From Candidatus Parvarchaeota archaeon (GTDB lineage: Archaea; Nanobdellota; Nanobdellia; B33-G15), in contig JAFCFZ010000009.1 of the NCBI GenBank assembly GCA_017608385.1, positions 1 to 54,596 on the forward strand: 54,596 bases of DNA, read 5' to 3'. The notes below the pieces were generated by a model. The model saw only the letters and a program-made list of their open reading frames with translations, was not told where the DNA came from and made no database searches. Each line of letters begins with the position of its first letter. Position 1 is the stretch's first letter. A program made the translations under genes and the position numbers. Below, piece after piece: positions 9,192-53,315 of this stretch.

Positions 9192-9223
9192 AATTAATAA
9201 CAGAAACACTCTTTATCTATTCT

Positions 9224-10309: not shown

Positions 10310-10313
10310 TTCT

Positions 10314-11792: not shown

Positions 11793-12802
11793 TTACAATA
11801 GATTTGGAAAGAGAGATAAAAAAAGAACTTTTTGATTTAGGATCTCAATTTGGTTATGGAAAGAGTAATAATTATTTGAGCGATGAAACGTTTATTCAAC
11901 CAAAAGAGTTATCAAAAAAAGCACATCCAAAACAAGGGTTTAAATTACATGTATCCTGTAACAATTCTGAAAAAGACTTGAAGAAGGTTATGAGAACAGT
12001 GGTACCTTATTTATTTGATAGGAAAATAGACTTTAAAGTAACTTATTCCTTAGATCATATGAAAGGGACTCAGATTGGAAAATTTCTTACAATATACACA
12101 AAATCAGATGATAATACTATTAAAGTTGCTTATGAAGTTGATAAACTTCTTTCAAAATCAGGCATAAGAGGAAAAGGACCAAAAATACCTTCCGATAATC
12201 TTATTCCAAATTCTTCTTCAGATATGGTTTATTATAGATTTGCTTCATCTGGAAAGGTGATTCAACTTCCAGATGGAAGAATGGTAGAAGATGCCAGAGT
12301 AGATCCTGTTCCTAAAGGAATAGTTGATATTTTTGAACAAGCTTATCAAAGAAAAAGACCAGAAGTACAAAAAAAAACAGTAACAGAAAAATTTGAAAGA
12401 CCCGAAACATTAGATGAATTAATTGAAGGTGTTGAATCTCAACAAGAACCAATAATAAGCAGTTCTGGAAGTTATATTCCTGAAGAAGTAGCTAAGAAAA
12501 TTGAAGCATATGCTAGTGGAGAAATTGGATTAGACAGGATTACAAGAGCAAAGGGATTAAGAACAAAAGCATGGGCCATTAAGCAAATATCAGAAGTAGA
12601 GAGCATGGATGAACTCATTAAATTGATTAAAGACAACGATTTAGAAATACCTAGTTCTTTAGGCACTTATAGTTCAGATAGATTAACCAAAGTAATAGAA
12701 CAAGTAGTTAGAACCAAAGGAAAAGACAGAGATAAAAAAATAGCTAATATAACTAGAACATTTGGATTGAGAAAAACAGTAATTAAACTGTTAAATACAT
12801 AA
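11786..12802 (+). CDS. Hypothetical protein; OspF/SpvC-like phosphothreonine-lyase-like core plus duplicated C-terminal unit (tentative)
   Basis: GTG 11786 overlaps the lysS stop by 7 nt; blocks FKLHVS / DFKVT / GKFLTIYTKSD / PSD...VYYRF occur in the order and spacing of SpvC (recalled); two roughly 45-aa repeats at aa 226-265 and 290-333. Confidence 0.6.
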   Translation: MVITIDLEREIKKELFDLGSQFGYGKSNNYLSDETFIQPKELSKKAHPKQGFKLHVSCNNSEKDLKKVMRTVVPYLFDRKIDFKVTYSLDHMKGTQIGKFLTIYTKSDDNTIKVAYEVDKLLSKSGIRGKGPKIPSDNLIPNSSSDMVYYRFASSGKVIQLPDGRMVEDARVDPVPKGIVDIFEQAYQRKRPEVQKKTVTEKFERPETLDELIEGVESQQEPIISSSGSYIPEEVAKKIEAYASGEIGLDRITRAKGLRTKAWAIKQISEVESMDELIKLIKDNDLEIPSSLGTYSSDRLTKVIEQVVRTKGKDRDKKIANITRTFGLRKTVIKLLNT

Positions 12803-12846
12803 TCTTGTGCATAAATGCTTTTAAGTGTCCTACTTGAGTGAAATGC

Positions 12847-13494
12847 ATGGCACTCGTTATTTTTGATTTAGATGATACTCTCATTTATCATGTTGAAGAC
12901 ACATTTTATGAAGTTTTTAACCGTTCTTTAGAGGAATCAGGATTAAAAAGAATGAATTATGATAAATATAAGATCTTTAGTAAGAAAGTTTGGAATCAAG
13001 AAGATAAACAAAATTCAAGAAAAGCCATAAAACAAGAGTTTGATGTTGAAATAGAAGATTTTATTGAAAAATTATACAAATATGATTTGATTGTTCATGA
13101 AGAATATTTAAAAAATGGATTTATTGAGGTTTTTGATGATGTTGTTGAATCTTTAAGTGAATTAAAAAATCAGGGTCATAAAATTGCATTGGTGACTAAT
13201 TCTTCAAGAAAATCAGCAGTTATGAAGATCAAAAAAATAGGAGAGCATTTGTTTGATTTTGTTTTAACCAGAGATGATATTGAATCTCCAAAACCAAATC
13301 CCGAACCTATTTTAAAAACAGTTTCAATAATGGGTTTTGAAAAGGAAGATTCTATTTATATTGGGGATTCTGAAGTAGACAAAATAGCTTCAGAAAGAGC
13401 AAATATTAAGTTTCTTATGATAAATAGGGGAAATGGATATGGAGATATAAAATCCTTAAATCAATTACACAAATTAATAGGTAATGAGAATTAA
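12847..13494 (+). CDS. HAD-superfamily hydrolase (phosphatase, subfamily IA-like)
   Basis: Motif I VIFDLDDTL, motif II VTNSSRK, motif IV GDSEVD; ATG 12847 (track gives in-frame GTG 12838). Confidence 0.8.
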   Translation: MALVIFDLDDTLIYHVEDTFYEVFNRSLEESGLKRMNYDKYKIFSKKVWNQEDKQNSRKAIKQEFDVEIEDFIEKLYKYDLIVHEEYLKNGFIEVFDDVVESLSELKNQGHKIALVTNSSRKSAVMKIKKIGEHLFDFVLTRDDIESPKPNPEPILKTVSIMGFEKEDSIYIGDSEVDKIASERANIKFLMINRGNGYGDIKSLNQLHKLIGNEN

Positions 13495-13537
13495 AATAGA
13501 AACATATAGTTGTTCCTCAAATGTTTCAGACCATAAA

Positions 13538-14002
13538 TTAAATATATATCCTCAAAGCATCCCTTTTAATACTTTCAATCCTTTTGATAACAATTTCCTC
13601 ATCAATTATCTCTGGATTTTTAATTGTTACAAAAAGTCCAACGTTTTTATGATCAATATGACCAACTGAAGATAATACAACAGGAACTCTTTTTAAAGAA
13701 CCATAGGATCTAACTTCTTTGTCATTAGTTTTGATATCAAGAGGCACACAATATTTTATAGAATTCTTTTGTTTTAAGACCCAATAATCCACTGGAATAT
13801 CTTTAATCTCTTTAATAATTTCTTTAGGTACAATAACAACTGCTCCATTGTTATATGATGTTGCTCTTCCTGTAGCTCCGATTCTCAATTTTTCCTTTTC
13901 GAGTAATTTTTCCAAATCTCTAAAAGTTTCTTCAAGAGAATCAGTAAGTTTACCTTCCATCCTCACACTCTTTCCATCAACAACAGAAAATCTTGCACTC
14001 AT
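13538..14002 (-). CDS. Hypothetical protein (154 aa)
   Basis: ATG ORF immediately downstream of proS on the same strand; no family recognised. Confidence 0.55.
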   Translation of the reverse strand: MSARFSVVDGKSVRMEGKLTDSLEETFRDLEKLLEKEKLRIGATGRATSYNNGAVVIVPKEIIKEIKDIPVDYWVLKQKNSIKYCVPLDIKTNDKEVRSYGSLKRVPVVLSSVGHIDHKNVGLFVTIKNPEIIDEEIVIKRIESIKRDALRIYI

Positions 14003-14045
14003 GAGTTTTCATGAGAAAATGCCTTTTAAAATAATTTTGAAAGAT

Positions 14046-15518
14046 TTAGTAACTCTTTGCGATGTATACAGTTTCTTTTGAAGGTTTTCCACAAACACAA
14101 CATTGCTTAAACTTATTTTTTTCCTTGCCAACTCGTTTTCCTCTTACTTCTGCACCTGTTTTTTCCTTGATAGATTCAGCACATTTCTTTCCGCTCAATT
14201 CTAAAGAACAAAAACCAGTACAAGCAATCATTCCATCGTCTATTACTTTTTTGATTTCGATTATTGTTTTTGCTGTTTTGACTTTTGATTCAAAACTAAT
14301 TAATGTTTTTTTCTTGAGTTGATCTGTGAAATTCTTTGAAAAATCATTGACAAATTTACCAATATTTGTCCATTTTACTGCTTGTTTTTTTCTATCAATT
14401 CTATTAACAGCAACCACTTTTTTTGATTCAATGTCTTTAGGTCCTATCTCAATTCTTAAAGGAACTCCCCTTAATTCCCACTCATTGAATTTTTCACCAG
14501 GACTTATTTCATCCCTATCATCTAATTTAACTTTACATTCTTTGAGAGAAACTTTTACAGTTTTTTCGATTTCTTTGGCTTTTTTCATCACATTATTCTT
14601 AGTTTTAGCATTGTAAATAGGAATAATCACAACATGTAATGGAGATAGATCCCACGGTAACACTAATCCATTATCATCTCCTAAAATTGCAACCATTCCT
14701 CCATAGATCCTACTTATTGCAGGCCCATAACATGTAATATGTCCATACTGTTCCTTATTGTTTTTATCAAGAAATGTTACGTTAAATGGTTTTGAAAATT
14801 TTTTTCCCAGATAGTGTGTTGAAGGTAATTGTATTACTTTTCCAGATTGAGTTAATGCATCTGCTGCAAATGTTTCTTCTGTTCCTGCAAATTTATCCCA
14901 GTGAGGTCTTTGAAAGAATATTATTGGGATGCAGAAATTATCTTGTAACATTTCATAAGTTGTTTCCATGTCTTCATTTATTTGGCTCATTGCGTCTTTT
15001 TTTGATGCAAAAACATTATGAGATTCAATCCAATGAAATTCTCTTGCTCTAAAGAAAGGAAATGTTGCTTTTCCTTCATGTCTCCAAACCTGACAGGATT
15101 GATATCTCTTGAATGGAAGATCCTTATAACTTCTAATCCATAGAGAATACATTTGATAAAATGCTGTTTCACTTGTTGGTCTTAATGCAAGCCTTTCCTC
15201 TAACTTGTTTTTTCCTCCGTGTGTTACCCAAAATACTTCAGGAGTAAATCCTTCTACATGGTCTGATTCAAGCTTGAAATTACTCTCTGGGATTAATGAA
15301 GGTAAAGTGATAGGTAAGTGACCTTTCTTTTCAAGAAGATTTTGATATTTTTCATACATTTTTCTTATAGTTATTGTTGCCCAAGGCATGTAAACTATCA
15401 TACCTTTGATTTTGTACCTAGTATCAGCTAATTCTGCTTTTTGTACCAATTCTAAGAACCATTTGGAAAAATTCTGGTTTTTCTTTACAGATATTCCCTT
15501 TATCCTTTCTTTACTCAT
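14046..15518 (-). CDS. proS: Prolyl-tRNA synthetase, archaeal/eukaryotic type
   Basis: LRPTSETAFYQMYSLWIRSYKDLPFKRYQSCQVWRHE, FHWIESH, C-terminal Zn-binding domain ending ...CCVCGKP..YIAKSY. Confidence 0.93.
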   Translation of the reverse strand: MSKERIKGISVKKNQNFSKWFLELVQKAELADTRYKIKGMIVYMPWATITIRKMYEKYQNLLEKKGHLPITLPSLIPESNFKLESDHVEGFTPEVFWVTHGGKNKLEERLALRPTSETAFYQMYSLWIRSYKDLPFKRYQSCQVWRHEGKATFPFFRAREFHWIESHNVFASKKDAMSQINEDMETTYEMLQDNFCIPIIFFQRPHWDKFAGTEETFAADALTQSGKVIQLPSTHYLGKKFSKPFNVTFLDKNNKEQYGHITCYGPAISRIYGGMVAILGDDNGLVLPWDLSPLHVVIIPIYNAKTKNNVMKKAKEIEKTVKVSLKECKVKLDDRDEISPGEKFNEWELRGVPLRIEIGPKDIESKKVVAVNRIDRKKQAVKWTNIGKFVNDFSKNFTDQLKKKTLISFESKVKTAKTIIEIKKVIDDGMIACTGFCSLELSGKKCAESIKEKTGAEVRGKRVGKEKNKFKQCCVCGKPSKETVYIAKSY

Positions 15519-15601
15519 ACTTCTATGATAAGAAAATAACTTATATTAATTATGCTTGTTATACCGAAATGTTTATATTTACTATAAAGTGGTTATTTTT
15601 T

Positions 15602-16099
15602 ATGAATAATAAAAGATTAATTGTAGAATTAGAAACACATGGAAAACCATGGAATGTTGAAAAATTACTTGATCAAGATCAAGAGATTATTTTGGGAACT
15701 ATGGAAGACACTGTAGTAAATGGTTCTACATGGGAAAAGAAATTTTGGATAGAGCAAGATAATGAGGTTATTTTAGGTTCTTCAGAACATTCAAATATAA
15801 TATTGGATGATTTGATTCCTGAGAAGTTACTTACAATATCTGTTGGAAATTTGGAAGGGATTAATCCAAAAGATTTATTTTATCAAGTTTTTGTGGAAAT
15901 GGAAAAAGACAATTCTCCTCAAAAAGTAACTGTAGCTTATAGAGATCCATATTCAAAACCAGTTATTTTAAGACCTAAATCCTCTTTTGGGATAAGAAAT
16001 CAAGGCGTTGTAGAGATCTTTGAAGGAGTTGCAGATAATTTGGATGGATATCATGAAAAATTAGGATCTTTACAAATGTATCTAGAAGGAACACGTTAG
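15602..16099 (+). CDS. Hypothetical protein (165 aa from ATG 15602)
   Basis: ORF track starts at ATG 15569, but the TATA-like tttatattta (15572-15581) lies inside that extension and about 25 nt upstream of ATG 15602. Confidence 0.5.
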   Translation: MNNKRLIVELETHGKPWNVEKLLDQDQEIILGTMEDTVVNGSTWEKKFWIEQDNEVILGSSEHSNIILDDLIPEKLLTISVGNLEGINPKDLFYQVFVEMEKDNSPQKVTVAYRDPYSKPVILRPKSSFGIRNQGVVEIFEGVADNLDGYHEKLGSLQMYLEGTR

Positions 16100-16160
16100 T
16101 TAGATAGACACAACATTTATTTAGTTTTATTTAGATTTGTTATTATCCCTAGTGATAATA

Positions 16161-17948
16161 ATGAAAAAATTAGACCATAAACAATTGAAAAAGCTTTTTT
16201 TTGAATTTTTCAAAAGTAAAAAACATGCAATTATCAAAGACTTTTCAATTGTTCCTGAAGAAGAAGGAGGAGAAGGATTGTTTATTCTAGCAGGCATGCA
16301 TCCTTTGATACCCTATTTAATGGGTAAAAAGCATAAAGATGGAAATAGAATCGCAAATTGTCAGAGATGTATTAGAACAGTTGATATTGAGGAAGTTGGA
16401 GATAAGACACATAATATTTTTTTCGAGATGCTTGGAAATTGGTCTTTAGGTGATTATTTTAAAAAAGAATCAATTGAGTGGAGCTATGAATTTCTTACTT
16501 CTAAAAAATACTTAGACATTCCTCACGAAAAGTTGTGGGTCACTGTTTTCAAAGGAAATAAGATAGTTGGAAAAGATGAAGAAAGTGTTCAAATATGGAA
16601 ATCTTTAGGAATTTCAGAAAATAAAATAATTCCCTTAGGAGAAAAAGATAATTGGTGGGCTGTTGGAGAAAATGGACCTTGTGGTCCCGATACTGAGGTT
16701 TTTATTGATTTGACTGGAAAACCGTGTGGAAAAAAGTGTTTACCTGGACATTGTGAATGTGGAAGATTTGTTGAGATATGGAATAATGTTTTTATGGTTT
16801 ATGATAAACAAGGGGGAAAAATAACTGAATTAAGCAAAAAAAATGTTGATACTGGTTTAGGATTGGAGAGAACTTTGGCTATTTTGAATGGTTATGATTC
16901 ATTGTATGAAACTTCTGTTTTAAAACCAATATTAGAAGAGATTATGAGTAAATCTCAACAAGATTTGGAAAAAGAGAAAAAAGATTTTAGAATTTTGACA
17001 GATCATTTGAGAGCAAGTGTGTTTATTTTAGGAGATGTAAATCCAACAATCCCATCCAATCATGGAAGGGGTTATGTTTTGAGAAGAATTATCAGAAGAT
17101 CTTTTAGATTTTGTAAGAAATTAGAAATTAATGTTGAAGACTGGATAAACACTTCAAATATTGTTATAGACATATATAAAGAATATTATCCTGAATTAGA
17201 GAAGAACAGGAACTTTATTATCAAAGAAATGGAAAAAGAGAATGAAAGATTTAGTAAGGCTCTTGCAAAGGGACTTTTTTATCTAAAGAGAATGATGCCA
17301 GAAATTAAGAAAAAAGGCAAGATTAATGGAGAAACTGCTTTTAGATTATATGATACTTTTGGATTCCCTATAGAGATCACAAGAGAAATAGCTGAGGAAA
17401 ACAAATGGGGAATCGATATCAAAAAATATGATATTTTGTTGGAAAAACACAAGGAAAAATCAAGAGCAGTATCAGAAAAAGCAAAAAGTGGGTTGGTTGA
17501 AGAAAGTAAGGAAACATTGCAATATCACACTTTAACTCATTTACTCCAGGCAGCGTTGATTAAAATTTTAGGAAAACAAGTAAAACAGAAAGGTTCAAAC
17601 ATAAACAAAGAGAGATTAAGATTTGATTTTTCTCATGATAGATCTATGACAAAAGAAGAGATAAAAAAAGTGGAAGAATGGATTCAAGATAAGATAGATA
17701 AAAAATTGGATGTTACAAAAGAGAAAATGACTTATGAAGTGGCAATGAAATTAGGCGCTATAGGTTTATTCAATGATATATATGCTAAAAAAGTCACAGT
17801 CTATTCAGTTGGAAATGCTTCAAAGGAAATATGTAGAGGACCACATGTGTCAAATACAAAGGAAATAAAAGGGAAATTCAAGATCAAAAAAGAAGAATCT
17901 TCTTCTGCTGGTGTAAGAAGAATCAAAGCAATTCTTATTCAGGATTAA
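16161..17948 (+). CDS. alaS: Alanyl-tRNA synthetase, short bacterial-type (catalytic, tRNA-recognition and editing domains; no C-Ala domain)
   Basis: FFEFFKSKKH, CQRCIR, HNIFFEMLGNWSLGDYFK, GPCGPDTEVF, VEIWNNVFM, DTGLGLER; editing HTLTHLL and CRGPHV; ends right after AGVRRIKA; ATG 16161 preferred over TTG 16137. Confidence 0.9.
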   Translation: MKKLDHKQLKKLFFEFFKSKKHAIIKDFSIVPEEEGGEGLFILAGMHPLIPYLMGKKHKDGNRIANCQRCIRTVDIEEVGDKTHNIFFEMLGNWSLGDYFKKESIEWSYEFLTSKKYLDIPHEKLWVTVFKGNKIVGKDEESVQIWKSLGISENKIIPLGEKDNWWAVGENGPCGPDTEVFIDLTGKPCGKKCLPGHCECGRFVEIWNNVFMVYDKQGGKITELSKKNVDTGLGLERTLAILNGYDSLYETSVLKPILEEIMSKSQQDLEKEKKDFRILTDHLRASVFILGDVNPTIPSNHGRGYVLRRIIRRSFRFCKKLEINVEDWINTSNIVIDIYKEYYPELEKNRNFIIKEMEKENERFSKALAKGLFYLKRMMPEIKKKGKINGETAFRLYDTFGFPIEITREIAEENKWGIDIKKYDILLEKHKEKSRAVSEKAKSGLVEESKETLQYHTLTHLLQAALIKILGKQVKQKGSNINKERLRFDFSHDRSMTKEEIKKVEEWIQDKIDKKLDVTKEKMTYEVAMKLGAIGLFNDIYAKKVTVYSVGNASKEICRGPHVSNTKEIKGKFKIKKEESSSAGVRRIKAILIQD

Positions 17949-18432
17949 CTTCTTCTTCTAAAATCCAAAATTCATCTTTTCCTGCTAACATCCCTTTTCC
18001 ATATTCTTTTCTTACTTTGCCTGCTTTTTTCCCTTTAGCTAGAAGACTAAAAATTATTCTATTTCCAACTCGTTTCATCTCTTCAATTGCTTTTAATGGT
18101 CTTTTTACATCTTGTAATACAGTTACAGAAATTACTATATCAAACTCTTTGTCTTTAAAAGGAAGTTCTTCAGCGTTTGAAATAACAAATTTACCTCTTA
18201 CTCCTTTTCTTTTAGCTATTTTTATCATTTCTTCACTCAAGTCTAAACAAACTAATCTAGAAGCTCTTTGTAGTTTTTCAGAAATGATTCCAGTCCCACA
18301 ACCTACCTCTAAAACTGATTTTCCCTTTACTCGTATGTAGCCCCTAATAGCTTTCCATTTCTCTTCTTGCTCCTCACCGTATAATTCATCATAACCAGGA
18401 GATATTCCATCATAATATTCCTTAATACTCAT
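17935..18432 (-). CDS. Class I SAM-dependent methyltransferase
   Basis: Motif I VLEVGCGTGIISEKL, then DLSEEMI and acidic post-I residues. Confidence 0.8.
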   Translation of the reverse strand: MSIKEYYDGISPGYDELYGEEQEEKWKAIRGYIRVKGKSVLEVGCGTGIISEKLQRASRLVCLDLSEEMIKIAKRKGVRGKFVISNAEELPFKDKEFDIVISVTVLQDVKRPLKAIEEMKRVGNRIIFSLLAKGKKAGKVRKEYGKGMLAGKDEFWILEEEVNPE

Positions 18433-18507
18433 ATCTTAGTATATGTAATAAGTAGTTAAAACCTTTTTCACAAAACATTTATTATCTTGATTTTGCTTTA
18501 TTGCTTT

Positions 18508-19791
18508 ATGATTGATTATGTTCTTTTGAAGACTAAAAAAGGAGATTTTGAGGGATTTATTGTCCCTAGAAGTGAATTTAGTCATAAGGGTTTTGTTACA
18601 TTAAAACTAAAAGATGGTTATAACATCAATGTGAAAAAAACTGATATAATTTCAATGAAAACTATGAAAAAAAGAGCAACACTTGAGAAGTTTCCTAAAA
18701 TTAATATTAAAACAAGAAAAGGGCTTCCAAATATCTCTTTAATCTCTACAGGAGGAACAATTGCTTCTCGTGTAGATTATGAAACAGGTGGAGTTAAAAT
18801 GGCACTTTCTCCTGAAGAAATAATGTTTGCTGTTCCCGAAATGCAAAATTTTGTGAATATTGACTCTGTAAAACAGGTTTTTAATATGGCATCTGAGGAT
18901 ATTTTTCCTGAACAATGGATAAAAATTGCTAAAACAATTGTAAATGAGTTAAATAAAGGTTCTAGAGGAGTAGTTATTACCCATGGAACAGATACAATGC
19001 ATTATACTTCTGCTGCTTTGTCTTTTTTAGTAAGGACTTCAAAACCAATTATTTTAACAGGAGCTCAGAGAAGCACAGATAGAGGGAGTTCAGATACGTT
19101 TCTTAATTTATTATGTGCGGGGATTGCTGCAGGAAGATCAGATTTGGGAGAAGTAGCTATTGTTTTTCATGAGAATCTTGAGGATGATTTTTGCTTTGCA
19201 ATAAGAGGAACTCGCGCAAGAAAGATGCATACTGAAAGAAGAGATGCATTTAGACCAATAAGTTCTCTTCCTTTATTAAGAATCGACAAAAAAGGAGGAA
19301 TTGAAAGAACTTCAGATTTCAAAATCTTTTCAGATGAAAAAGCAAAGTTAGATGGTGGTTTTGATAGGAATGTTGCATTGCTAAAAGTTTATCCAGGAGC
19401 AGACCCAAAAATACTTGATTTTTATCTTGAGAAAGGTATAAAGGGAATTATTATTGAAGGTACTGGTTTTGGCCATGTTCCAACAAACACACTGAAAAAA
19501 ACAGATTCTTGGATAAGCAAAGTCAAAAAATTAGTAGATAATGGAATCTTTGTTGGAATAACATCTCAAACAATATATGGAAAAACGAGCAGTACTGTTT
19601 ATAGGAATTTGAGGGTATTATCTAAAACTGGAGCAGTTCATTTATCAAATATGATACCTGAAACAGCATATGTTAAGTTAGGGTGGGCTCTTTCAAAGGA
19701 AAAAGATATTGATAAATTAAAGAAATTAATGTTAACAAACATCGCAGGAGAAATATCAGATAGAACAGAAGAAAATTGGTTTTTGAAATGA
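18508..19791 (+). CDS. gatD: Glu-tRNA(Gln) amidotransferase subunit D
   Basis: Asparaginase-like motifs ISTGGTIASRVDYETGGV and THGTDTMHYT after a short N-terminal barrel; directly followed by gatE; ATG 18508 (track TTG 18487). Confidence 0.9.
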   Translation: MIDYVLLKTKKGDFEGFIVPRSEFSHKGFVTLKLKDGYNINVKKTDIISMKTMKKRATLEKFPKINIKTRKGLPNISLISTGGTIASRVDYETGGVKMALSPEEIMFAVPEMQNFVNIDSVKQVFNMASEDIFPEQWIKIAKTIVNELNKGSRGVVITHGTDTMHYTSAALSFLVRTSKPIILTGAQRSTDRGSSDTFLNLLCAGIAAGRSDLGEVAIVFHENLEDDFCFAIRGTRARKMHTERRDAFRPISSLPLLRIDKKGGIERTSDFKIFSDEKAKLDGGFDRNVALLKVYPGADPKILDFYLEKGIKGIIIEGTGFGHVPTNTLKKTDSWISKVKKLVDNGIFVGITSQTIYGKTSSTVYRNLRVLSKTGAVHLSNMIPETAYVKLGWALSKEKDIDKLKKLMLTNIAGEISDRTEENWFLK

Positions 19792-21560
19792 AGATTGGTT
19801 TAGAAATTCATCAGCAATTGAATACTGGTAAATTGTTTTGTAGATGTGATTCCAAAATCATCAAAAGACCTCCTGACAAAGTTATTAAGAGGCAATTAAA
19901 GGCAATTTCAGGTGAATTAGGGAAAGTAGATATAGCTGCTTCTTATGAACAAAAAAAAGAAAGAGAAATTTTCTATGAATTTTATAATAATGATAATTGT
20001 TTGGTGGAATTGGATGAAGAACCCCCACAACCAATAAATAAAGATGCATTGGAAATAGCGATAAAAATAGCTTTTTTGCTTAATATGGAACCTTTGGAGG
20101 AAATTCAAGTTATGAGAAAATCTGTTGTAGATGGATCTAACACCTCTGGATTTCAAAGAACAGCATTGGTTGGGATCAATGGTTATGTTGAGACTAAGGA
20201 AGGAAAAGTTAGAGTCAATAGATTATACTTAGAAGAAGACTCTGCTAGGAGAATTTCGGGAGAGAAAACAATATTTAGATTAGATAGATTAGGGATTCCT
20301 CTTGTTGAGATAAGAACAGAACCAGATATCAAAAGTCCTGAACATGCTTATCAGATTGCTAGAAAAATAGGTCAATTATTGAGAGTTACTGACGTTAGAA
20401 GAGGAATAGGAACTATAAGACAAGATGTTAATGTTAGTGTTAGGGGAGGAAAAAAAGTAGAGATTAAGGGATTCCAAGACATTAAATCAATCAAAAAAAC
20501 AATTGAAATGGAAGCAAACAGACAAAAGGGATTTTTACAAATATCTAAAGAATTGAAAAAAAGAAAAGCCAAGTCTGGTCAAATAAGAGAGATAACCGAT
20601 ATTATTGAAAAAACAAAATCTAATTTGAAAAAAAGTTTTGGAACAAGTAATGCTTTGAAATTAAATGGATTTCAAGGATTATTGAAGAAACCAGCTGGTT
20701 TTTCTTGGCTTGGAAAAGAATTGTCGCAGATTGCCAAAAATTTTGGTTTTGGGGGGATAATTCATTCAGATGAGTTACCTGCTTTTGGGATTACTAATAA
20801 AGAAATTGAAAAGATAAGGGAAAGAGTAGGATGTAAGAAGAATGATGCTTTCTTGTTTATTGTTAGTAAAAAAGATAATATTCCTGCTTTGAAAACAATT
20901 GCAAAAAGAGCAGATATGTTTGTTAATGGGGCTCCTTCTGAAGTTAGAGTAGCTAAAGGAGATGGAACTACTGGTTTCTTAAGACCAATGCCAGGATCTG
21001 CAAGAATGTATCCTGAAACAGATTTATTGCTAATTAAAGTGGACTCAAAAAGAGTTAAGATATTAAAAAAAGATTTACCTGAAAGACCTGAGACTACAAA
21101 AGAAAGATACTTAGTTTTAGGATTAGGTTCAGAACAAACAGAACAAATAATTCGTTCGGGACATTCTAAACTTTTTGACAAGCTAATTTCAGAATCTAAA
21201 TTAAAACCAAGTGTTATTGCTAGTTTGTTATTGAGTTCTCCTAATGAATATAAGAAAAACTATGGAGTGAAGATAGAAATAGACGAAAAATGGCTTATTC
21301 CAGTGATTAGTCTCTTGGAGAAAGGAATGATAAGTAAAAATATGATTCCCCAAATAATCAATGATCTTTCAAAAGGCAAGAAATTGGAGAAAATAACCTC
21401 TTCTTTTGTTAGTGAAGATAGAATTGAATACTCTATAAAAAAAGTACTTAAGAAAAATAAAGATGTAGACAATAGGAAATTAGTTGGTCTTGTTTTAGCA
21501 GACCTAAAAGGAAGAGCTAGTCCTTCAAAGATCTTTGAAATAATCAAAAAAATTATTTGA
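19788..21560 (+). CDS. gatE: Glu-tRNA(Gln) amidotransferase subunit E
   Basis: MKIGLEIHQQLNTGKLFCRC start typical of GatE/GatB; ATG 19788 overlaps the gatD TGA (ATGA). Confidence 0.92.
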   Translation: MKIGLEIHQQLNTGKLFCRCDSKIIKRPPDKVIKRQLKAISGELGKVDIAASYEQKKEREIFYEFYNNDNCLVELDEEPPQPINKDALEIAIKIAFLLNMEPLEEIQVMRKSVVDGSNTSGFQRTALVGINGYVETKEGKVRVNRLYLEEDSARRISGEKTIFRLDRLGIPLVEIRTEPDIKSPEHAYQIARKIGQLLRVTDVRRGIGTIRQDVNVSVRGGKKVEIKGFQDIKSIKKTIEMEANRQKGFLQISKELKKRKAKSGQIREITDIIEKTKSNLKKSFGTSNALKLNGFQGLLKKPAGFSWLGKELSQIAKNFGFGGIIHSDELPAFGITNKEIEKIRERVGCKKNDAFLFIVSKKDNIPALKTIAKRADMFVNGAPSEVRVAKGDGTTGFLRPMPGSARMYPETDLLLIKVDSKRVKILKKDLPERPETTKERYLVLGLGSEQTEQIIRSGHSKLFDKLISESKLKPSVIASLLLSSPNEYKKNYGVKIEIDEKWLIPVISLLEKGMISKNMIPQIINDLSKGKKLEKITSSFVSEDRIEYSIKKVLKKNKDVDNRKLVGLVLADLKGRASPSKIFEIIKKII

Positions 21561-46260: not shown

Positions 46261-47229
46261 ATGGTTAAGAAAACTCTCACTAAGTTTTTGAAAAGATTGA
46301 AGTTTTGGGACAGGAAAAGAATAGGAGAATTTCCATTAGAAGTTAAGAAACTGTATGGTGGACCTAATAATCTTATCAAAAACGTCACGTTTCGTGTTAG
46401 GAAGAGAGATACTTTTGCAATAGTTGGTCCTTCTGGTTCTGGTAAAACCTCTTTAATGAAGATTATTTTAGGACTATTCAAAAAGAATTCAGGTGAGATA
46501 AGAGCATATGGAAAATCAATTAGAAAAATGAAAAATAAAATGGCTTTTTGTCCACAACACCTGTCTTTTTTCAGTGAATTAACTGTTAGAGAAAATATTC
46601 TCTTGTTTGGCTCTTTGAATGGATTATCAGATGAGGGAAGTATTGAGAAAGGAACCAATTATTTGAAAGAATTAGAAATGGAAAATAAAATCGATGATTT
46701 GTCCTCTATTTTATCAGGAGGTCAAAAAACAAGATTGAATATTATAGTATCTATTCTTCATGAACCTAAACTAATATTTTTAGATGAACCTTTTACGGGT
46801 TTGGATTATTTTAACAGGAATCTTTTGTGGGGATTCATTAAAAAACTGCAAAGAGGAGGAAGTACAGTTATTTTGACTACACATCTATTAACAGAGGCTC
46901 AAAAAAATTGTAATAGAATGTTGGTCATAAAAGAAGGTAAAAAATATGTTATGGGTGATGTAGAAGATATTAGAGAAAAAGTCAATTTAGATTATATTTA
47001 TGAAGTGAAATTCAAAAAAATTAGCAAGAAGAAAGAAAAACAAATTGAAAGATATTGTAATATCCATAATATTGACATTTTATCAAAACAAGTTGATGTT
47101 TTTTGGTTTGGAATTGATGAGAAAAAAAGAGCAAAATTAGAAACATTGTTGAGAAGATTTGAGCATAAGACTTTGTCAATCAGGGAACCAGAGATTAATG
47201 ATTTATTCTTAAAGGTGGCTGAAACATGA
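46261..47229 (+). CDS. ABC transporter ATP-binding protein
   Basis: Walker A GPSGSGKTS, signature LSGGQKTRL, Walker B LIFLDEPFTGLD. Confidence 0.85.
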   Translation: MVKKTLTKFLKRLKFWDRKRIGEFPLEVKKLYGGPNNLIKNVTFRVRKRDTFAIVGPSGSGKTSLMKIILGLFKKNSGEIRAYGKSIRKMKNKMAFCPQHLSFFSELTVRENILLFGSLNGLSDEGSIEKGTNYLKELEMENKIDDLSSILSGGQKTRLNIIVSILHEPKLIFLDEPFTGLDYFNRNLLWGFIKKLQRGGSTVILTTHLLTEAQKNCNRMLVIKEGKKYVMGDVEDIREKVNLDYIYEVKFKKISKKKEKQIERYCNIHNIDILSKQVDVFWFGIDEKKRAKLETLLRRFEHKTLSIREPEINDLFLKVAET

Positions 47230-48503
47230 AAATAAAACTACCAAACTCCAAATTGAAGAGTTTATTGTTGAAAGAATACTTACTCTTGTTAAGAAAAAAG
47301 AAATTTTTAGTTATGGTTTTAGCTCTCCCGATAATTTTTGGAGTATTTTATCAAACAAGTATGACCATGGAACCAGGAATTGCTATTAATGTAGGTGTTT
47401 GTAATTTAGACCCTAGTGAACATTCTTCTAGTTTAGTTAGTGAATTAAGCAGTGTTTTTTCAGTAACTCAATATTCAGAACCTTGTGATGAAAATCTAGC
47501 AAGAGGCGTAAGAGATACTGAAATATTTTTAGGATTATTAGTCCCAGAAGATTTTTTCCAAAAACTTTCCACATTGAATAAATCAGACATTTTCATTTAT
47601 TATGATAACTCTAATCCAGTCCTATCTAATTATTTGGACTTCTTTTTCCAATTAAGTATAAAAAATTATGAAAATGCATTGTTAAGACAGGCAGGAGATG
47701 TTGTAAAGACAGAAACACAAAAAGCAGATTTAATTATTTCAAGTGCCTATACTGTTTTAGATTCCATAAGATTTTTAGGGTATGGAATTTCTAGTGTGGC
47801 AGATCAAGTTCAAGAGATCCAACAAGCATTGAATACAATTGAAGCAATGGACATTAGTTTTGTGACTGAACCAGTTGTTGTAAATAAGGTAGGAGCATAT
47901 GATCTAAAGAATGAATCGGGTATTAGTGCAGCATTAATTTTTGGTATTTTATCCCTATTTACTGCGTTATTGTTAGTATCTTCCAATATTCTTTCAGATA
48001 AAGAAGACAATTTCATAATTCGCTTGAAAGTTTCAAAAACTTCTAGTGTAACATATCTTTTGTCAAAGATTATTTTCTTTGATTTCGTATTGATTTTTCA
48101 GTATATGGCAGTGTTTCCTTTATTTTTGTCAGCTTCATGGTTAAATGTCAATATTTTTGCTCTTGTTTTTTCATTAATTATTGTTGCAAGTATCAATGTT
48201 TTGATGGGAATTTTAATTGGATTGTTTAGTGAGAATCAAGCAATAGCAGTTCTAACAGCTCTTTTATTGACTCTTCCATTTTTGTTTATGTCTGGGATGT
48301 TTTATCCAAGAGAATTGTTCCCACCTCCACTCAAATTCATTTCAGATGTCTTTCCATTAAGTAATGAAATAACCTTGTTAAAACAGTCAATGGTTTTTGG
48401 TTATGATTTTTCTTTGAATTCAACAATGGTTCAACTTAATTTGATGTACTTAATCTGCTTTTTTGTAGTTGCTTGGCTTTTACTCCGATTTAAACAACAC
48501 TAA
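47226..48503 (+). CDS. ABC-2 type transporter permease
   Basis: ATG overlaps the ATPase stop (ATGA); N-terminal TM, large extracytoplasmic loop, then about 5 C-terminal TM helices, as in ABC-2/YhaP-like permeases. Confidence 0.7.
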   Translation: MKIKLPNSKLKSLLLKEYLLLLRKKKFLVMVLALPIIFGVFYQTSMTMEPGIAINVGVCNLDPSEHSSSLVSELSSVFSVTQYSEPCDENLARGVRDTEIFLGLLVPEDFFQKLSTLNKSDIFIYYDNSNPVLSNYLDFFFQLSIKNYENALLRQAGDVVKTETQKADLIISSAYTVLDSIRFLGYGISSVADQVQEIQQALNTIEAMDISFVTEPVVVNKVGAYDLKNESGISAALIFGILSLFTALLLVSSNILSDKEDNFIIRLKVSKTSSVTYLLSKIIFFDFVLIFQYMAVFPLFLSASWLNVNIFALVFSLIIVASINVLMGILIGLFSENQAIAVLTALLLTLPFLFMSGMFYPRELFPPPLKFISDVFPLSNEITLLKQSMVFGYDFSLNSTMVQLNLMYLICFFVVAWLLLRFKQH

Positions 48504-48519: not shown

Positions 48520-50055
48520 ATGTATCTTGCTTTTATGGCTAAAAAATTCTTAGCAGTTATTAAAGAAAATGGTAAAGAAGTAGGAATTTTCAATGATTTA
48601 AAAGGAGCTAAAGGCCCCGGAATTGCTCTTTCCGAGATATTTCAAGCATTTCATACGAAAAATGAAAAATTAACTAAAAGAGTTTTAGAATCTAAGATTG
48701 TTAATGACGAAGGTTTTTTACAAATGTTAAGAACATCTCATAACTTTTCAACTGAAATCAATAAAAAATTCCCTGAGTACATAATTTCAGTTATTATTTT
48801 TGGTTCTTGGGCAAGAGGAGAAGCAAAGAAGACAAGTGATTATGATTTAGCAGTTGTAGTAGATGATACAGATTTGAGAGAAATGACAAGAGTTGAGGCA
48901 AAGCAAAGACTATTTGGAATAGTTAATATGACTGCAAGAAAAATGGATAAAAAATTCACAATCCAAGCATACTTGTTAACTGAATTTTGGGATTATTTGA
49001 AAAAAGCAAATCCGGTTATTTTTACTTTATTGAGAGATGGTGTTCCAATTTATGATAGGGGTTTGTTTGTTCCATGGAAACTATTATTGAAAATGGGAAA
49101 AATAACTCCTACACCAGAAGCAATTGAGACATTTATTAGCTCTTCAAGATTATTGGGTAAACAAATTGAATCTAAATTAGAAGAAATTGTTATAGAAAAT
49201 ATTTATTATCTCTTGTTAAATCCCGCTCAAGCATTATTGATGTTAGATGGTGCTTCTCCTAGCACTTATTCAGAAACAGCTCCACTTTTGAAAAGAACCT
49301 TTGTTTCGAAAGGGATTATGCCTTTAAAATATGTTAATTGGTTAAGTGAAATTGTTCAATTAAGGAAGGATGTGGAACACAAGAAAAAACATATTTCAGG
49401 TAAAGAATTGGATCTTCATTGGAAAAGAGCCAAAGAATACCTTCTTTTTATGGAGAAATTATTTGAAAAACTCAAAAAAGAGAAGTCTAAAAAGGATGTA
49501 GATGAGTTGGAAAAAGCTTTTGAGAAGACAGTTAAAGCAACATTGAAGAGTATGGGTTTAAAATCAGGAGAAGGAGCATACATTGCTTTTAGGAAACATT
49601 TGGTGAAAAAAGGATTAATTCCCCCAGGTTATTTGGAATTTTCTAATTTTTTATATTCACTCAAAAAAACAAGTAAAGCTGGAAAAATAGTTACAGAAAC
49701 TGAATTAGAAAAAGCTAGAGAAGATGCAAACGACTTGTTTAATTTAATGAATTCTATTGTTGAAACAAGAAAAATAAAGCCAGGAAAACCAGTTAAGTTC
49801 CTTTCAGGAAAGAAACAAGGTGAGATTTGGTTATTAGGTAATAAGATATTCATAATAAAAGATATTAAACATCCAGAAGAGCCTATTTTTGTTGCTGTTT
49901 TGAAAAAGGATGGTTTTTTTGTAGAAATAAAGAAAACAGGAATAGATAGATTAAATATGGAAAGAAGAAAGTGGAAAGGAAAGACTATATTGATGGAAAA
50001 AACTTTAGAGAGCTTAGCTGATTTTATTGGAAATGATATTAAGATAGTTCTTTGA
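48520..50055 (+). CDS. Pol-beta-type nucleotidyltransferase fused to HEPN-like helical domain(s) and an extra C-terminal domain
   Basis: VIIFGSWARGEAKKTSDYDLAVVVDD (GS..x..DxD) then a helical region containing LRKDVEH (R-x4-H); alternative ATG 48535. Confidence 0.65.
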   Translation: MYLAFMAKKFLAVIKENGKEVGIFNDLKGAKGPGIALSEIFQAFHTKNEKLTKRVLESKIVNDEGFLQMLRTSHNFSTEINKKFPEYIISVIIFGSWARGEAKKTSDYDLAVVVDDTDLREMTRVEAKQRLFGIVNMTARKMDKKFTIQAYLLTEFWDYLKKANPVIFTLLRDGVPIYDRGLFVPWKLLLKMGKITPTPEAIETFISSSRLLGKQIESKLEEIVIENIYYLLLNPAQALLMLDGASPSTYSETAPLLKRTFVSKGIMPLKYVNWLSEIVQLRKDVEHKKKHISGKELDLHWKRAKEYLLFMEKLFEKLKKEKSKKDVDELEKAFEKTVKATLKSMGLKSGEGAYIAFRKHLVKKGLIPPGYLEFSNFLYSLKKTSKAGKIVTETELEKAREDANDLFNLMNSIVETRKIKPGKPVKFLSGKKQGEIWLLGNKIFIIKDIKHPEEPIFVAVLKKDGFFVEIKKTGIDRLNMERRKWKGKTILMEKTLESLADFIGNDIKIVL

Positions 50056-50098: not shown

Positions 50099-50183
50099 GC
50101 CGGGGTGGCTGAGTGGACTAAGGCGCCAGCCTGGAAAGCTGGTGAGCGTTAAGCTCTCCAGGGTTCGAATCCCTGCCCCGGCG
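50099..50183 (+). tRNA. tRNA-Ser (anticodon GGA), type II
   Basis: Acceptor GCCGGGG/CCCCGGC, anticodon stem CCAGC/GCUGG with loop CUGGAAA, variable arm GAGC-GUUA-GCUC, T arm CAGGG-UUCGAAU-CCCUG, discriminator G; followed by an oligo-T run. Confidence 0.92.
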
Positions 50184-50246: not shown

Positions 50247-51740
50247 ATGTCAAATGGTTTTATTAAATCTGAAATTCCTAATGAGATCAAGAAAAAAACG
50301 CTAAAGCAGTCTATTTTTTCATTTAAAAATCAAAGAGAAAATGATTATTGTATATTTCATTCTTTGTCATTAAAGAAAATATATGGTAATCAAGATATTT
50401 TCAGAATATTTGACATTTTTGAAAAAGGGAAAAAAGTTAGTGATATTTTGAAAGAATTTAGCGAAAAGGATAAAGACAAATTCTTGAAAACTGTGACTCA
50501 AATGTATAATTTTAGCTTTCTTGTTGAAGAAAATTTAAATGAAAAGGAATTGCTCAATATAGCAAGGAAGGAGCTCCCAAAAAAACCATTACTTAATGTA
50601 ATGTACTTGATTTTGACAGATAAATGTAATTTTGCTTGTAAGTATTGTTTTGTTGAAGGTAATATCAAAAAAGACTATAAATTTAGTTCTATGAATGAAG
50701 CAACGGCAAAAAGAGCAATTGACTTGTTCTTCCTTAATATTAACAAAAAGAAACTAAAAAAGAGCCAAATAATTTTTTATGGAGGAGAACCTCTGTTAAA
50801 CAAAGATGTTTTCAAGTTTGCTGTTGAGTATATTCAAGAAAACCAAAAGAAAATCTCATTTGAACATAAACATACTATGATGATTGTAACCAATGGTACC
50901 TTTGTGGATGAAGAATTAGCTGTTTTTTTTAAGAAAAATGATGTTGAAATAGGGATTTCTTTGGATGGTTCAAAAGAAATTAATGACCAAATGAGAATTA
51001 AAACAGATGGAAAAGGAACATTTGAAGATATAATTAATGCAATTGAAATTTTAAGAAGACATGGTATCCCCTTTGGAATTTCTTGTACCATAAGTACACA
51101 TAATTTGGATAAACTTGAAGAGGTTAGTAAGTGGTTTGTAGACTATTTAAAAACAGAATCCTTTGATTTCAATATATTGATTGATACCCTCGATAAAAAG
51201 AACCCAAAACTTAATGCAGAAAAAGTGGCAAAAAAACTTATAAGTTGTCACAAAATAGCCAGAGACGCAGGAATTGGTGAAGGGAGGATTAGCAGGAAAG
51301 TTGGTCCATTTTTAAGAGAAGAATTGTATTTAACTGATTGTGCTGCTTGTGATGGACAATTAATCATAGCACCAGATGGGGAAATTGGGATTTGTCATGC
51401 TTTTATTGGGAATAGAGAATATTTTTTCACAAATGTAAATGACATTGAAATTAATGAAAAGAGTTTAGAGAATATTGAAAAAAATAATTATATGATTGAA
51501 TGGACAAATAGAACTCCCATAAACATTAAGGAATGTTGGGATTGTGTGGCGTTAGGTATTTGTGGTGGTGGATGTCCATATAATTCTTTTGTTGATTCGG
51601 GAAGTATTTGGGAAGTTGATAAACGTTTTTGTCCTCATGCAATTAAAACGGTGGAATGGCTGATTTGGGATACTTTCGATAGAATGAATAAAAACGAAGA
51701 AATCGTTAGGCTTAAAAGTATCGAAAAGAAATATGTATAA
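50247..51740 (+). CDS. Radical SAM/SPASM-domain peptide-modifying enzyme with N-terminal RRE-like domain
   Basis: CNFACKYC (CxxxCxxC, aa 127-134); SPASM pattern C-x10-G-x4-C, CWDCVALGICGGGC, RFCPH; about 115-aa N-terminal extension with a PqqD-like look. Confidence 0.88.
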   Translation: MSNGFIKSEIPNEIKKKTLKQSIFSFKNQRENDYCIFHSLSLKKIYGNQDIFRIFDIFEKGKKVSDILKEFSEKDKDKFLKTVTQMYNFSFLVEENLNEKELLNIARKELPKKPLLNVMYLILTDKCNFACKYCFVEGNIKKDYKFSSMNEATAKRAIDLFFLNINKKKLKKSQIIFYGGEPLLNKDVFKFAVEYIQENQKKISFEHKHTMMIVTNGTFVDEELAVFFKKNDVEIGISLDGSKEINDQMRIKTDGKGTFEDIINAIEILRRHGIPFGISCTISTHNLDKLEEVSKWFVDYLKTESFDFNILIDTLDKKNPKLNAEKVAKKLISCHKIARDAGIGEGRISRKVGPFLREELYLTDCAACDGQLIIAPDGEIGICHAFIGNREYFFTNVNDIEINEKSLENIEKNNYMIEWTNRTPINIKECWDCVALGICGGGCPYNSFVDSGSIWEVDKRFCPHAIKTVEWLIWDTFDRMNKNEEIVRLKSIEKKYV

Positions 51741-51936
51741 CATGAATGAATACCTAAATAAGGAACTCATAATCTATCAACCAAAAACAATGGTTGAATC
51801 GATAACTCCAACTATAGGATTTAACTTAGATAATTTAGTTGTTTTTGCACCAGAAAAAAAGGACTTAGAAGTGCTTTTACCAAAAACAGAAGCTTATGTT
51901 AGGGCCTGTAGTTGTCAAAGATGTGGAAAATGCTAA
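51733..51936 (+). CDS. Candidate RiPP precursor peptide (67 aa) with C-terminal ACSCQRCGKC
   Basis: ATG overlaps the maturase stop by 8 nt (second ATG 51742); Cys-free leader-like 57 aa, then 4 Cys in the last 9 residues, ending at the stop codon. Confidence 0.55.
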   Translation: MYNMNEYLNKELIIYQPKTMVESITPTIGFNLDNLVVFAPEKKDLEVLLPKTEAYVRACSCQRCGKC

Positions 51937-52637
51937 AAACTAATTCCTTTAGCTTTATGGGCTTTCTTTAAAAATGAAGGGAAATCTTTCCTATTTTTCC
52001 ATATAGGGTTTAATATCCTTCTATTCTTTTCAATAAAATCATAATTTCTTTTCACCTTCCAAAATTTGGATAGAATGGGATCTTCAAGTAGGACATATTC
52101 CACAATTATTTCAGATAAAAGCCAGCTTTTTTCATTAGTAAAGGGATATTTCTCTTTAGAATTAAATACTTCCTTAAAAATATCCCAATAATGTAAATGG
52201 AACAATTCTTCTGCTATTGGATATACATTATGTTCTGAGATTCTTATTTCATTTGGAACCAAATAATGTCCAACAGTAACATCATTAACAAAACAAGAAT
52301 ATTTTCTGTGTTTCCATTGAAAACCTGTTATTTCACTTACTCTCTTCCAAAAAACATTGTCTATTTTATCCCATTTAGCTTCTAAAAAATGCTTTTTTGG
52401 TTTCAAATTGGTTCTTTTTTTTCTGACCAATTTTATAAGTTCATTTTTTAAATTTCCTGCCAAATATTTTTTAGATATAATCAAATTAAAAATTTCTTCT
52501 GGGATTTTCAAAAGGAAGGGAGACCAAGAAGTAAATGGTTTTCCTCTTTTAATTTCTTCTTCTACACTCTCCTTGAAGTCAAAAATTATTTTAGCACTTT
52601 TTTTGTGATTTGCTATATTAAAATATAATTTAGGCAT
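51933..52637 (-). CDS. Hypothetical protein (234 aa)
   Basis: ATG ORF convergent on the peptide gene (4-nt overlap of stops); contains EELFHLHYWD; no family recognised. Confidence 0.6.
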   Translation of the reverse strand: MPKLYFNIANHKKSAKIIFDFKESVEEEIKRGKPFTSWSPFLLKIPEEIFNLIISKKYLAGNLKNELIKLVRKKRTNLKPKKHFLEAKWDKIDNVFWKRVSEITGFQWKHRKYSCFVNDVTVGHYLVPNEIRISEHNVYPIAEELFHLHYWDIFKEVFNSKEKYPFTNEKSWLLSEIIVEYVLLEDPILSKFWKVKRNYDFIEKNRRILNPIWKNRKDFPSFLKKAHKAKGISF

Positions 52638-52661: not shown

Positions 52662-53315
52662 TTAAATTCTTTTTATGACTTGATAAAAAGCATTGTTTTT
52701 CTCTTTTTGTTCAACAACTCTAAAACCGTTTTCTTTAGAGATATTTGCTATTTCTTGAGGATTTGTGATCCTTCTGTAAACCTGAAGGGGTTTTAATCCC
52801 CATTCTCCTACCCATTCATCAACATCCAAATGTTTTTCATTTAGAACAACACCATCAATATTATACACATTATCTCCAATGATAATTGTACCATCCTTTT
52901 TAACCAATCTATACATTTCATTGAGAGCACTTTTTAGATCATTAAGAGTAAGCATATGTTGAAGTGTCCAAAAAGAAGTGACAGTTCCAAAAGAATTGTC
53001 TTTAAATGGAACTTGACGAATGTCAGAAAGAATAAGATTCTCTAAACCTTCTTTTTTTGCAATTTCAAGCATTTCTGGGGAAATATCTATCCCAACCACA
53101 GAATAACCTCTTTTCGAAAATATCTTGGTCCAATGACCTGTGCCACACCCCAAATCAAGAATAGGGTCCCTTAATTCTATAAAATCTACAATGTTTTTAA
53201 GAACTGCCTGTTCTTCTACCATTTCTTCAGGGATATTGGTATAAATAGCATCATCATAAATTTTAGAAATTTCTTCATAATACTTCTTTATAACGTCTAA
53301 ATCATCATTGTCCAT
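52662..53315 (-). CDS. Class I SAM-dependent methyltransferase
   Basis: ILDLGCGTGHWTKIFSKRGYSVVGIDISPEML motif I/II. Confidence 0.8.
   Translation of the reverse strand: MDNDDLDVIKKYYEEISKIYDDAIYTNIPEEMVEEQAVLKNIVDFIELRDPILDLGCGTGHWTKIFSKRGYSVVGIDISPEMLEIAKKEGLENLILSDIRQVPFKDNSFGTVTSFWTLQHMLTLNDLKSALNEMYRLVKKDGTIIIGDNVYNIDGVVLNEKHLDVDEWVGEWGLKPLQVYRRITNPQEIANISKENGFRVVEQKEKNNAFYQVIKRI

Follow-up and report, generated by a model that had tools for sequence, protein, structure and literature searches.

A 54,596-nt stretch (positions 1-54,596, forward strand) of contig JAFCFZ010000009.1 of a Candidatus Parvarchaeota archaeon (assembly GCA_017608385.1), analysed over its whole length and termed the window in the following, probably carries a compact FibroRumin-like cassette for peptide maturation in an archaeal chromosome, i.e. 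a system of the RiPP type (for peptides that are made by the ribosome and modified after translation). The cassette is composed of two convergent two-gene units: on the plus strand, a gene for a radical S-adenosylmethionine (rSAM)/SPASM enzyme is followed by that of a small Cys-rich peptide, and on the minus strand, a methyltransferase gene is followed by that of a zincin-like protein of 234 aa. An identical four-gene order is found in three further loci (L001, L003, and L004), and in these as well as in the window the converging gene ends overlap by 4 nt. An original prediction, made from the letters of the DNA, had pointed to an rSAM enzyme coupled to a Cys-rich peptide at this site; the 497-aa and 67-aa open reading frames (ORFs) and the motifs were all found in the sequence at the coordinates it gave, and the tRNA-Ser(GGA) is present as well. 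The features of the cassette are as follows.

50247-51740, plus strand: rSAM/SPASM peptide maturase, 497 aa (ORF; FibroRumin-like, under the equivalog cut-off)
50298-50528, plus strand: predicted N-terminal winged-helix domain resembling a RiPP recognition element (RRE), aa ~18-94 (AlphaFold2 secondary structure, structural and phmmer alignment)
50625-50648, plus strand: CxxxCxxC motif CNFACKYC with C127/C131/C134, aa 127-134 (read in the sequence; invariant in 48 homologues)
51339-51632, plus strand: SPASM region with seven invariant Cys, including CxxCx5Cx3C (alignment columns; fold match)
51733-51936, plus strand: precursor peptide gene, 67 aa, or 64 aa from the ATG at 51742 (ORF; same place and orientation in L001 and L004)
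51856-51894, plus strand: leader segment PEKKDLEVLLPKT (degenerate family leader motif; alignment with related peptides)
51895-51933, plus strand: conserved C-terminal core YVRACSCQRCGKC, with CxCxxCxxC at the extreme C-terminus (comparison with L001 and L004)
51933-52637, minus strand: 234-aa zincin-like protein, possibly the leader peptidase (gene runs towards that of the peptide, 4-nt overlap)
52110-52112, minus strand: Glu176, candidate third metal ligand (48/48 sequences; helix 169-184)
52191-52211, minus strand: EELFHLH, aa 143-149, active-site-like, family motif [H/E]ExxH (column counts, 48 sequences)
52662-53315, minus strand: class I SAM-dependent methyltransferase, 217 aa (Pfam; upstream of and co-directional with the zincin-like gene, 24-nt gap)

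The enzyme encoded by the 497-aa ORF has three domains: a predicted winged helix of RRE-like type, the radical SAM core, and a SPASM domain with seven Cys. The core is recognized by Pfam Radical_SAM (PF04055) with 81.9 bits at a cut-off of 29.5, and the triad CNFACKYC was found as predicted, with C127, C131, and C134 invariant across an alignment of 48 homologous sequences (33-46% identity). The complete SPASM Cys pattern claimed for the C-terminal part stands with a correction: seven Cys (C365, C383, C430, C433, C439, C443, and C462) are invariant in the same alignment and the fold matches that of SPASM enzymes, whereas C368, which had been included as part of a 'CAAC' motif, is variable, and Pfam SPASM remains sub-threshold (15.7 vs 21.5 bits). 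These Cys match the pattern for two auxiliary [4Fe-4S] clusters, the binding of which is predicted from sequence and model.

Among the NCBIfam models, TIGR04136 (FibroRumin system radical SAM peptide maturase) scores best by a wide margin (268.5 bits); the match extends over the full length (profile positions 3-454 of 458), the N-terminal domain included. Models for PapB, nif11, ScfB-like, SCIFF, and DynA maturases come next, and that of the anaerobic sulfatase-maturating enzyme (anSME) reaches 134.7 bits, so a grouping with sulfatase-maturating or cofactor-biosynthesis enzymes was not found in this comparison. The closest PDB entries by sequence are CteB (5WGG, E 4e-34) and TigE (8VPO, E 9e-27). 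An AlphaFold2 model built on the homologue alignment has a predicted local distance difference test (pLDDT) score of 91.5; in Foldseek searches with the whole model, TigE is matched over 471 columns (E 7e-24) and CteB over 476 (E 8e-23), but anSME over ~390 only (E 8e-17).

TigE and CteB both possess crystallographically defined N-terminal RREs and seven-Cys SPASM domains (PMC10878394). In the model of the window enzyme, aa ~18-94 form a small beta-sheet plus three helices at pLDDT >90, with strands at 18-21, 25-30, 33-38, and 44-47 and helices at 49-57, 64-68, and 73-88, so the absence of an RRE fold from aa 1-115, one of the outcomes looked for, is not what the model predicts. In the phmmer alignment, query aa 29 onward pairs with TigE residue 18 onward. 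The N-terminal extension had been proposed as a PqqD-type RRE: the RRE-like fold and the alignment to TigE and CteB agree with this, but Pfam PqqD is undetected, which is why the assignment is based on predicted fold and TigE/CteB homology, and aa ~18-94 are regarded as a putative RRE-like domain.

The peptide gene overlaps that of the maturase. Its ATG at 51733 overlaps the maturase stop codon (TAA, 51738-51740), a second ATG is located at 51742, and the encoded 67 aa comprise a Cys-free leader and the tail ACSCQRCGKC directly before the stop, all as originally described. The closest homologue of the enzyme, P0002 in L001 (47% identity), is followed by a 54-aa ORF ending in YVKACSCTKCGKC, and an enzyme fragment in L004/L005 (~59% identical) by a 57-aa ORF ending in YVRACSCTKCGKC; L003, a second contig, encodes a peptide identical to that of the window. 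The 13-residue C-terminus is hence common to three independent loci (window, L001, and L004), with equal length, 11 of 13 residues identical, and the last Cys terminal (consensus YV[RK]ACSC[QT][RK]CGKC), and the leaders of the three can barely be aligned. On the DNA level, the differences within the core are mainly synonymous, affecting Val (GTT/GTA/GTG), Ala (GCC/GCG/GCT), Cys (TGT/TGC), Ser (AGT/AGC), Arg (AGG/CGA), and Lys (AAA/AAG) codons, and therefore indicate that the encoded core is under purifying selection.

That the 67-aa ORF is a real gene follows from its conservation beside orthologous enzymes, in the same place in L001 and L004, and not from its Cys pattern, which alone is not beyond chance in a window of 30.6% GC: the non-coding frames of this AT-rich DNA contain some ten further stretches dense in Cys. 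A word-based homology search with the peptide matched only the peptide itself, and conservation was traced via the neighbours of the enzyme homologues. When a profile was built from 21 family peptides without the clade of the window, the 67-aa ORF ranked first, at a marginal E-value, among the 997 six-frame ORFs. Family leaders share a motif of the form hydrophobic-hydrophobic-Gly-[Lys/Asn]-hydrophobic, in many cases after (I/V)VPxxx(D/E), which is located ~10-15 aa ahead of the first Cys and may serve in recognition; in the peptide alignment, the window leader PEKKDLEVLLPKT weakly resembles PKSEDLSVVLGKLQ, the leader of the downstream peptide in the related locus L025. Taken with the gene order, the 67-aa peptide is likely the substrate of the rSAM enzyme.

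A survey of the wider enzyme family covered 80 genome loci as well as metagenome loci. In >25 loci, among them those of Patescibacteria, Firmicutes, and Micrarchaeota, a Cys-rich peptide with CxC/CxxC repeats is encoded directly beside the homologous enzyme, usually upstream. TIGR04135, the model for the FibroRumin family of rSAM-modified Cys-rich RiPPs, is matched by the peptides from Firmicutes (E 4e-19) and weakly by that of L025 (E 8.5e-4). Relatives of the enzyme are frequent in Firmicutes, in the candidate phyla radiation (CPR)/Patescibacteria (e.g. L008, L011, L012, L016-L018, L020, and L022), and in DPANN archaea, with Woesearchaeota/Micrarchaeota examples in L028, L039, L043, L048, L059, and L069. 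CPR/Patescibacteria and DPANN are the two groups of ultra-small episymbionts, and the spread over both hints at cross-domain transfer or a common niche function.

The convergent 234-aa protein, proposed earlier as a possible export or tailoring partner of unknown type, proved to be conserved in the cassettes and can be reread as a zincin-like putative peptidase. It has no match in Pfam, NCBIfam, or PHROG. A word-based search yielded one relative, and an exhaustive HMMER search among 1.84 billion proteins retrieved 84 representative relatives, all ~200-260 aa in length, which corresponds to a family of ~84 representative clusters at 50% identity. The family shows the motif [H/E]-E-x-x-H and a Ser-Glu 28 residues later; across 48 sequences, E144 and E176 are invariant (48/48 each) and H147 is present in 47. 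In the AlphaFold2 model (pLDDT 94), a three-stranded sheet precedes the long helix that carries the motif, and E176 is part of the helix that comes next (169-184), i.e. a zincin topology. Weak Foldseek matches are mostly M1, M30, and M48 zinc peptidases, and individual family members weakly match Pfam YgjP-like, SprT-like, phage metallopeptidase, M56, and DUF3267 zincins; the family profile gave only noise against PDB sequences. The protein resembles gluzincins (HExxH…E; M1, M48, YgjP-like, SprT-like) in its [H/E]ExxH motif, in the invariant Glu 28 residues on, in the predicted location of both on successive helices that follow a small beta-sheet, and in these weak matches, but differs from them in that Glu stands in place of the first His in two thirds of the family, the clade of the window included, and that no peptidase family is matched significantly. 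The EExxH form in these two thirds is often followed by a further His (HxH), and this variant could reflect a different metal or ligand set.

Gene neighbourhood points in the same direction. On 16 metagenome contigs encoding a zincin-like protein, an rSAM gene is directly adjacent in ten, and two contigs are too short to judge (10 of 14 informative contigs). The trio of peptide, rSAM, and zincin genes also occurs in L105 in this order, and in L104 in the order rSAM, peptide, zincin, the latter with a canonical HEMLH. Since the zincin-like gene adjoins this enzyme family in most loci, the 234-aa protein is, with moderate confidence from motif, predicted fold, and neighbourhood, probably the leader peptidase. 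As some members occur without an rSAM neighbour, the family may have roles beyond the cassette: in L093 (5001-5720) such a gene stands beside a large secretion-ATPase-like gene and genes for membrane proteins, and in L089 (1191-1886) beside an RtcB-like gene and a 164-aa ORF. In L105, the trio is directly followed by a gene (3279-4418) for a large, Cys-rich, probably secreted protein of >380 aa, cut by the contig end.

The SAM methyltransferase, likewise named as a possible partner, is a conserved partner of the rSAM enzyme. It is assigned by Methyltransf_11 (PF08241, 91 bits) and PF13649 (82 bits); no specific NCBIfam equivalog reaches its cut-off. Orthologues occupy the equal position in L001 (38% identity), L003, and L004 (43%), a methyltransferase gene lies directly beside the rSAM gene in several other loci, and rSAM-methyltransferase fusions exist among the enzyme homologues (P0059 and P0100). 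An 86-aa ORF (L103, 3660-3920) lies ahead of the gene for the fusion P0059; its Cys cluster CSLQWCMCHC is situated mid-peptide and not at the C-terminus, so that a follower sequence is present. In L002 (8175-10066) and L106 (1856-3756), a FibroRumin-like rSAM gene is accompanied by a shorter second radical SAM gene, a methyltransferase gene, and an M23 peptidase gene, an accessory set that differs from that of the window.

From these components, a maturation pathway can be proposed. The 67-aa precursor is translated in coupling with the maturase gene through the overlapping stop and start codons. Its Cys-free leader would then dock on the RRE-like domain of the maturase, as the predicted fold and the comparison with CteB suggest. 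The radical SAM cluster is expected to cleave SAM, and the resulting 5'-deoxyadenosyl radical would abstract a hydrogen from one of the residues in the core, while thiolate and electron would presumably be handled by the two auxiliary clusters of the SPASM domain. At least one of the four Cys in YVRACSCQRCGKC would thereby be cross-linked, most likely by Cys-S-to-carbon thioethers as with CteB and PapB. The class I methyltransferase may add a methyl group to a thiol, a carboxylate, or an amine, and the zincin-like protein may remove the leader. Cys thioether cross-links are probably the product chemistry, by analogy to CteB and PapB. The chemistry is the weakest link of the proposal because no report characterizing any FibroRumin member was found in the literature search. 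The signature of a sactipeptide or ranthipeptide locus, as which the site had been interpreted, is present insofar as an RRE-like rSAM/SPASM enzyme is encoded beside a Cys-rich peptide, but the thioether class is not established.

Comparison with described systems places the cassette closest to FibroRumin. TIGR04136 is the only strong model for the enzyme and covers it in full, a Cys-rich precursor is encoded beside the enzyme, the canonical core (CACVACNSC…) opens with the same CxCxxCxxC spacing, and the leader motifs are related. In contrast, a canonical Lachnospiraceae maturase scores 765 bits where the window enzyme scores 268 at a cut-off of 400; other zincin-associated enzymes also stay under this cut-off (225-296 bits). 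The window peptide falls outside TIGR04135, is encoded downstream of the enzyme, and has a long leader and a minimal core of four Cys, the last of which ends the peptide, and the cassette differs further by its zincin-like and methyltransferase genes and its archaeal host. It thereby forms a divergent branch within a family for which database models are the sole source of knowledge.

The original prediction had named SCIFF-like maturation. The SCIFF precursor is a six-Cys-in-45 peptide that is matured, in the case of thermocellin, by CteB. CteB shares with the window enzyme the RRE, radical SAM, and SPASM architecture, the seven SPASM Cys, and a Cys-containing substrate, and it is the top PDB sequence match (aligned over 51-475) and the second-best structural match. 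However, identity is ~21%, TIGR03974 gives 143 bits at a cut-off of 425, and the window peptide has four Cys in a different pattern and matches no SCIFF model; a SCIFF-like class is therefore not upheld, FibroRumin being closer. PapB, the ranthipeptide maturase of freyrasin (NF047865), is a thioether-forming rSAM/SPASM enzyme that acts on Cys-rich repeats. Its model ranks second in NCBIfam, but the RS-SPASM part gives 173 bits at a cut-off of 340, the match starts at aa 119 and leaves the N-terminal domain uncovered, and the Cys-X3-Asp/Glu motifs of PapB substrates are missing from the window peptide. The cyclopropylglycine synthase TigE is the best structural match, RRE included; it forms C-C bonds on Ile/Val-rich repeats, and the Tyr of its GYW motif ligates auxiliary cluster I (PMC10878394). 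As the substrate in the window is Cys-rich, its chemistry probably differs from that of TigE. With anSME (PDB 4K36-39), the enzyme shares the fold of the radical SAM plus SPASM core, but anSME lacks an N-terminal recognition domain, and the window enzyme is far from the TIGR03942 cut-off (134.7 vs 349 bits).

Several observations weigh against interpreting the locus as a FibroRumin-like maturation cassette. The enzyme scores 268.5 bits where TIGR04136 demands 400, and Pfam PqqD finds no match in aa 1-115, where just a weak MCM winged-helix match appears. The peptide has no TIGR04135 match even at E <=10 (cut-off 45 bits), the E-value of its profile match is marginal (0.018), and the exact core is known from three independent examples only. 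Moreover, the core is invariant and the leader variable, which is the opposite of what antibiotic RiPPs usually show. A methyltransferase gene is located at most 4 kb from the rSAM gene in 11 of the 80 loci, i.e. it is only moderately frequent outside the clade of the window, and no dedicated exporter is conserved among the related cassettes. A literature search, in which subscription journals were not covered, found no report characterizing the product or activity of any FibroRumin member, nor any specific to Fibrobacter/Ruminococcus albus maturases or DPANN/CPR RiPPs. On the side of the zincin-like protein, position 143 is Glu in 31 of the 48 sequences, including the EELFHLH of the window, and His in 17, Foldseek gave no significant PDB match (all E >1), and three to four zincin loci have no adjacent rSAM gene.

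These last points are also the ones that speak for a different function of the 234-aa protein, which might be a scaffold or chaperone, an immunity protein, another hydrolase, or an inactive zincin fold, with the leader cut by a housekeeping protease or retained. With the first zinc ligand of HExxH replaced by Glu in most members, peptidases not matched significantly by either structure or profile, and members outside rSAM loci, such an alternative deserves serious consideration, but it is nevertheless unlikely: E144 (the Glu of the catalytic base), H147, and E176 show little or no variation, a canonical HExxH is retained in 17 of 48 members, the predicted topology is that of zincins, every functionally labelled weak match is a metallopeptidase, and the gene is frequently adjacent to those of the rSAM enzyme and the peptide.

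A second alternative, regarded as rather improbable, concerns the product. In the manner of PqqA/PqqE or MftA/MftC, the Cys4 tail could be converted into a small redox-active or metal-chelating cofactor for the cell. This would accommodate a nearly invariant core next to almost fully diverged leaders in a set of enzymes that are just 47-59% identical, its location at the extreme C-terminus as in MftA, and four thiols within ten residues as a plausible metal site, as well as the housekeeping-rich region without GC anomaly and the lack of a conserved exporter or immunity gene in related cassettes. The enzyme is nearest, however, to thioether-forming RiPP maturases and the FibroRumin model rather than to PqqE or MftC, the cores of the family are of very different lengths and contain from four to more than ten Cys, which is a misfit for a single cofactor, and no partner oxidoreductase or cofactor-using enzyme is linked to the cassette. 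Equally doubtful is the more far-reaching proposal of a distinct minimal system common to ultra-small archaea and CPR, in which rSAM enzyme, methyltransferase, and EExxH zincin turn the invariant 13-residue Cys4 C-terminus into a new structural class. If it were true, the product would be e.g. a metal-binding or redox-active molecule, S-methylated or with several thioether bridges, for episymbiotic use, unlike a conventional sacti- or ranthipeptide bacteriocin.

It is, finally, very hard to credit that the small ORF is no substrate at all, that it either encodes a small protein binding metal through its four Cys or has no function, and that the rSAM enzyme modifies a different protein, by formylglycine formation as in anSME or in some other way. 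In favour of this, anSME can be recognized as a relative (135 bits; Foldseek E 8e-17), CxCxxCxxC could be a zinc or Fe-S knuckle, and Cys-dense frames arise by chance in AT-rich DNA, but anSME has no N-terminal domain and scores 135 at a cut-off of 349 bits, no sulfatase gene was found by Pfam among the window ORFs around the enzyme, the C-terminus of the translationally coupled ORF is under purifying selection, and Cys-rich ORFs accompany the enzyme family across phyla, the canonical ones being curated as targets.

The interpretation as a FibroRumin-like maturation cassette is of interest for several reasons. No archaeal radical-SAM-modified peptide has been experimentally characterized, only haloarchaeal lanthipeptides have, according to a 2025 survey (PMC12144867). 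The chemistry had been called essentially uncharacterized in the setting of a DPANN-like archaeon; this holds for experimental characterization, but predicted radical SAM RiPP clusters in archaea, DPANN included, have already been catalogued (PMC12144867). The FibroRumin family is spread over many phyla, yet no report on it was found. The cassette is a small, well-delimited test case with four genes and a 13-residue core containing four Cys, for which three natural variants show the positions tolerating change. A likely role as peptidase partner is assigned to a previously unannotated protein family, and the Glu-for-His variant is directly testable. If the product is metal- or redox-active, this would bear on the interaction of genome-reduced archaea with their hosts.

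Upstream of the cassette, the window contains the following features.

46261-48503: ABC-2 transporter, not counted in the cassette
48520-50055: 511-aa nucleotidyltransferase-domain protein, between the ABC-2 transporter and the tRNA
50099-50183: tRNA-Ser(GGA)

The ABC-2 exporter, suggested before as an export partner, is unsupported in this role because it is not conserved next to related cassettes; it was rejected as a cassette member, as the nucleotidyltransferase gene and the tRNA intervene and related loci lack a counterpart. An immunity gene conserved alongside the cassette was likewise not found in the related loci. The protein encoded at 48520-50055 combines an N-terminal Pol-beta/MNT-type nucleotidyltransferase (weak MntA-antitoxin-like match) with a long uncharacterized C-terminal part, and in L002, too, a nucleotidyltransferase/HEPN gene is situated at a distance of a few kb from the rSAM gene. 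In two genomes, the cassette is located directly 3' of a tRNA gene, with different tRNAs: Ser-GGA in the window and Leu-TAG in L001 (912-997). A direct repeat of the tRNA 3' end and a GC shift were sought in the window and neither was found, so integration of a mobile island at the tRNA gene is unsupported. GC content is ~30% throughout the window (30.6%) without an anomaly at the cassette, which resides in a region of the chromosome rich in housekeeping genes.

The archaeal host presumed in the beginning is confirmed by GatD/GatE and an eEF1A-type elongation factor encoded in the window, next to genes for an archaeal-type non-discriminating AspRS and a PGF-pre-PGF domain protein; a DPANN affiliation is plausible. 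A cluster of translation genes at 7908-21560 comprises AspRS, LysRS, ProRS, AlaRS, and GatD/GatE. The LysRS in this cluster is of class II and matches a bacterial-type model, and the AlaRS is short (603 aa) and matches PRK01584; both may aid in taxonomic placement. The window begins inside an aEF-1alpha gene (1-953), and a second Cys-rich stretch (CxCxCxC) from position 11 was dismissed as an out-of-frame artefact within this gene.

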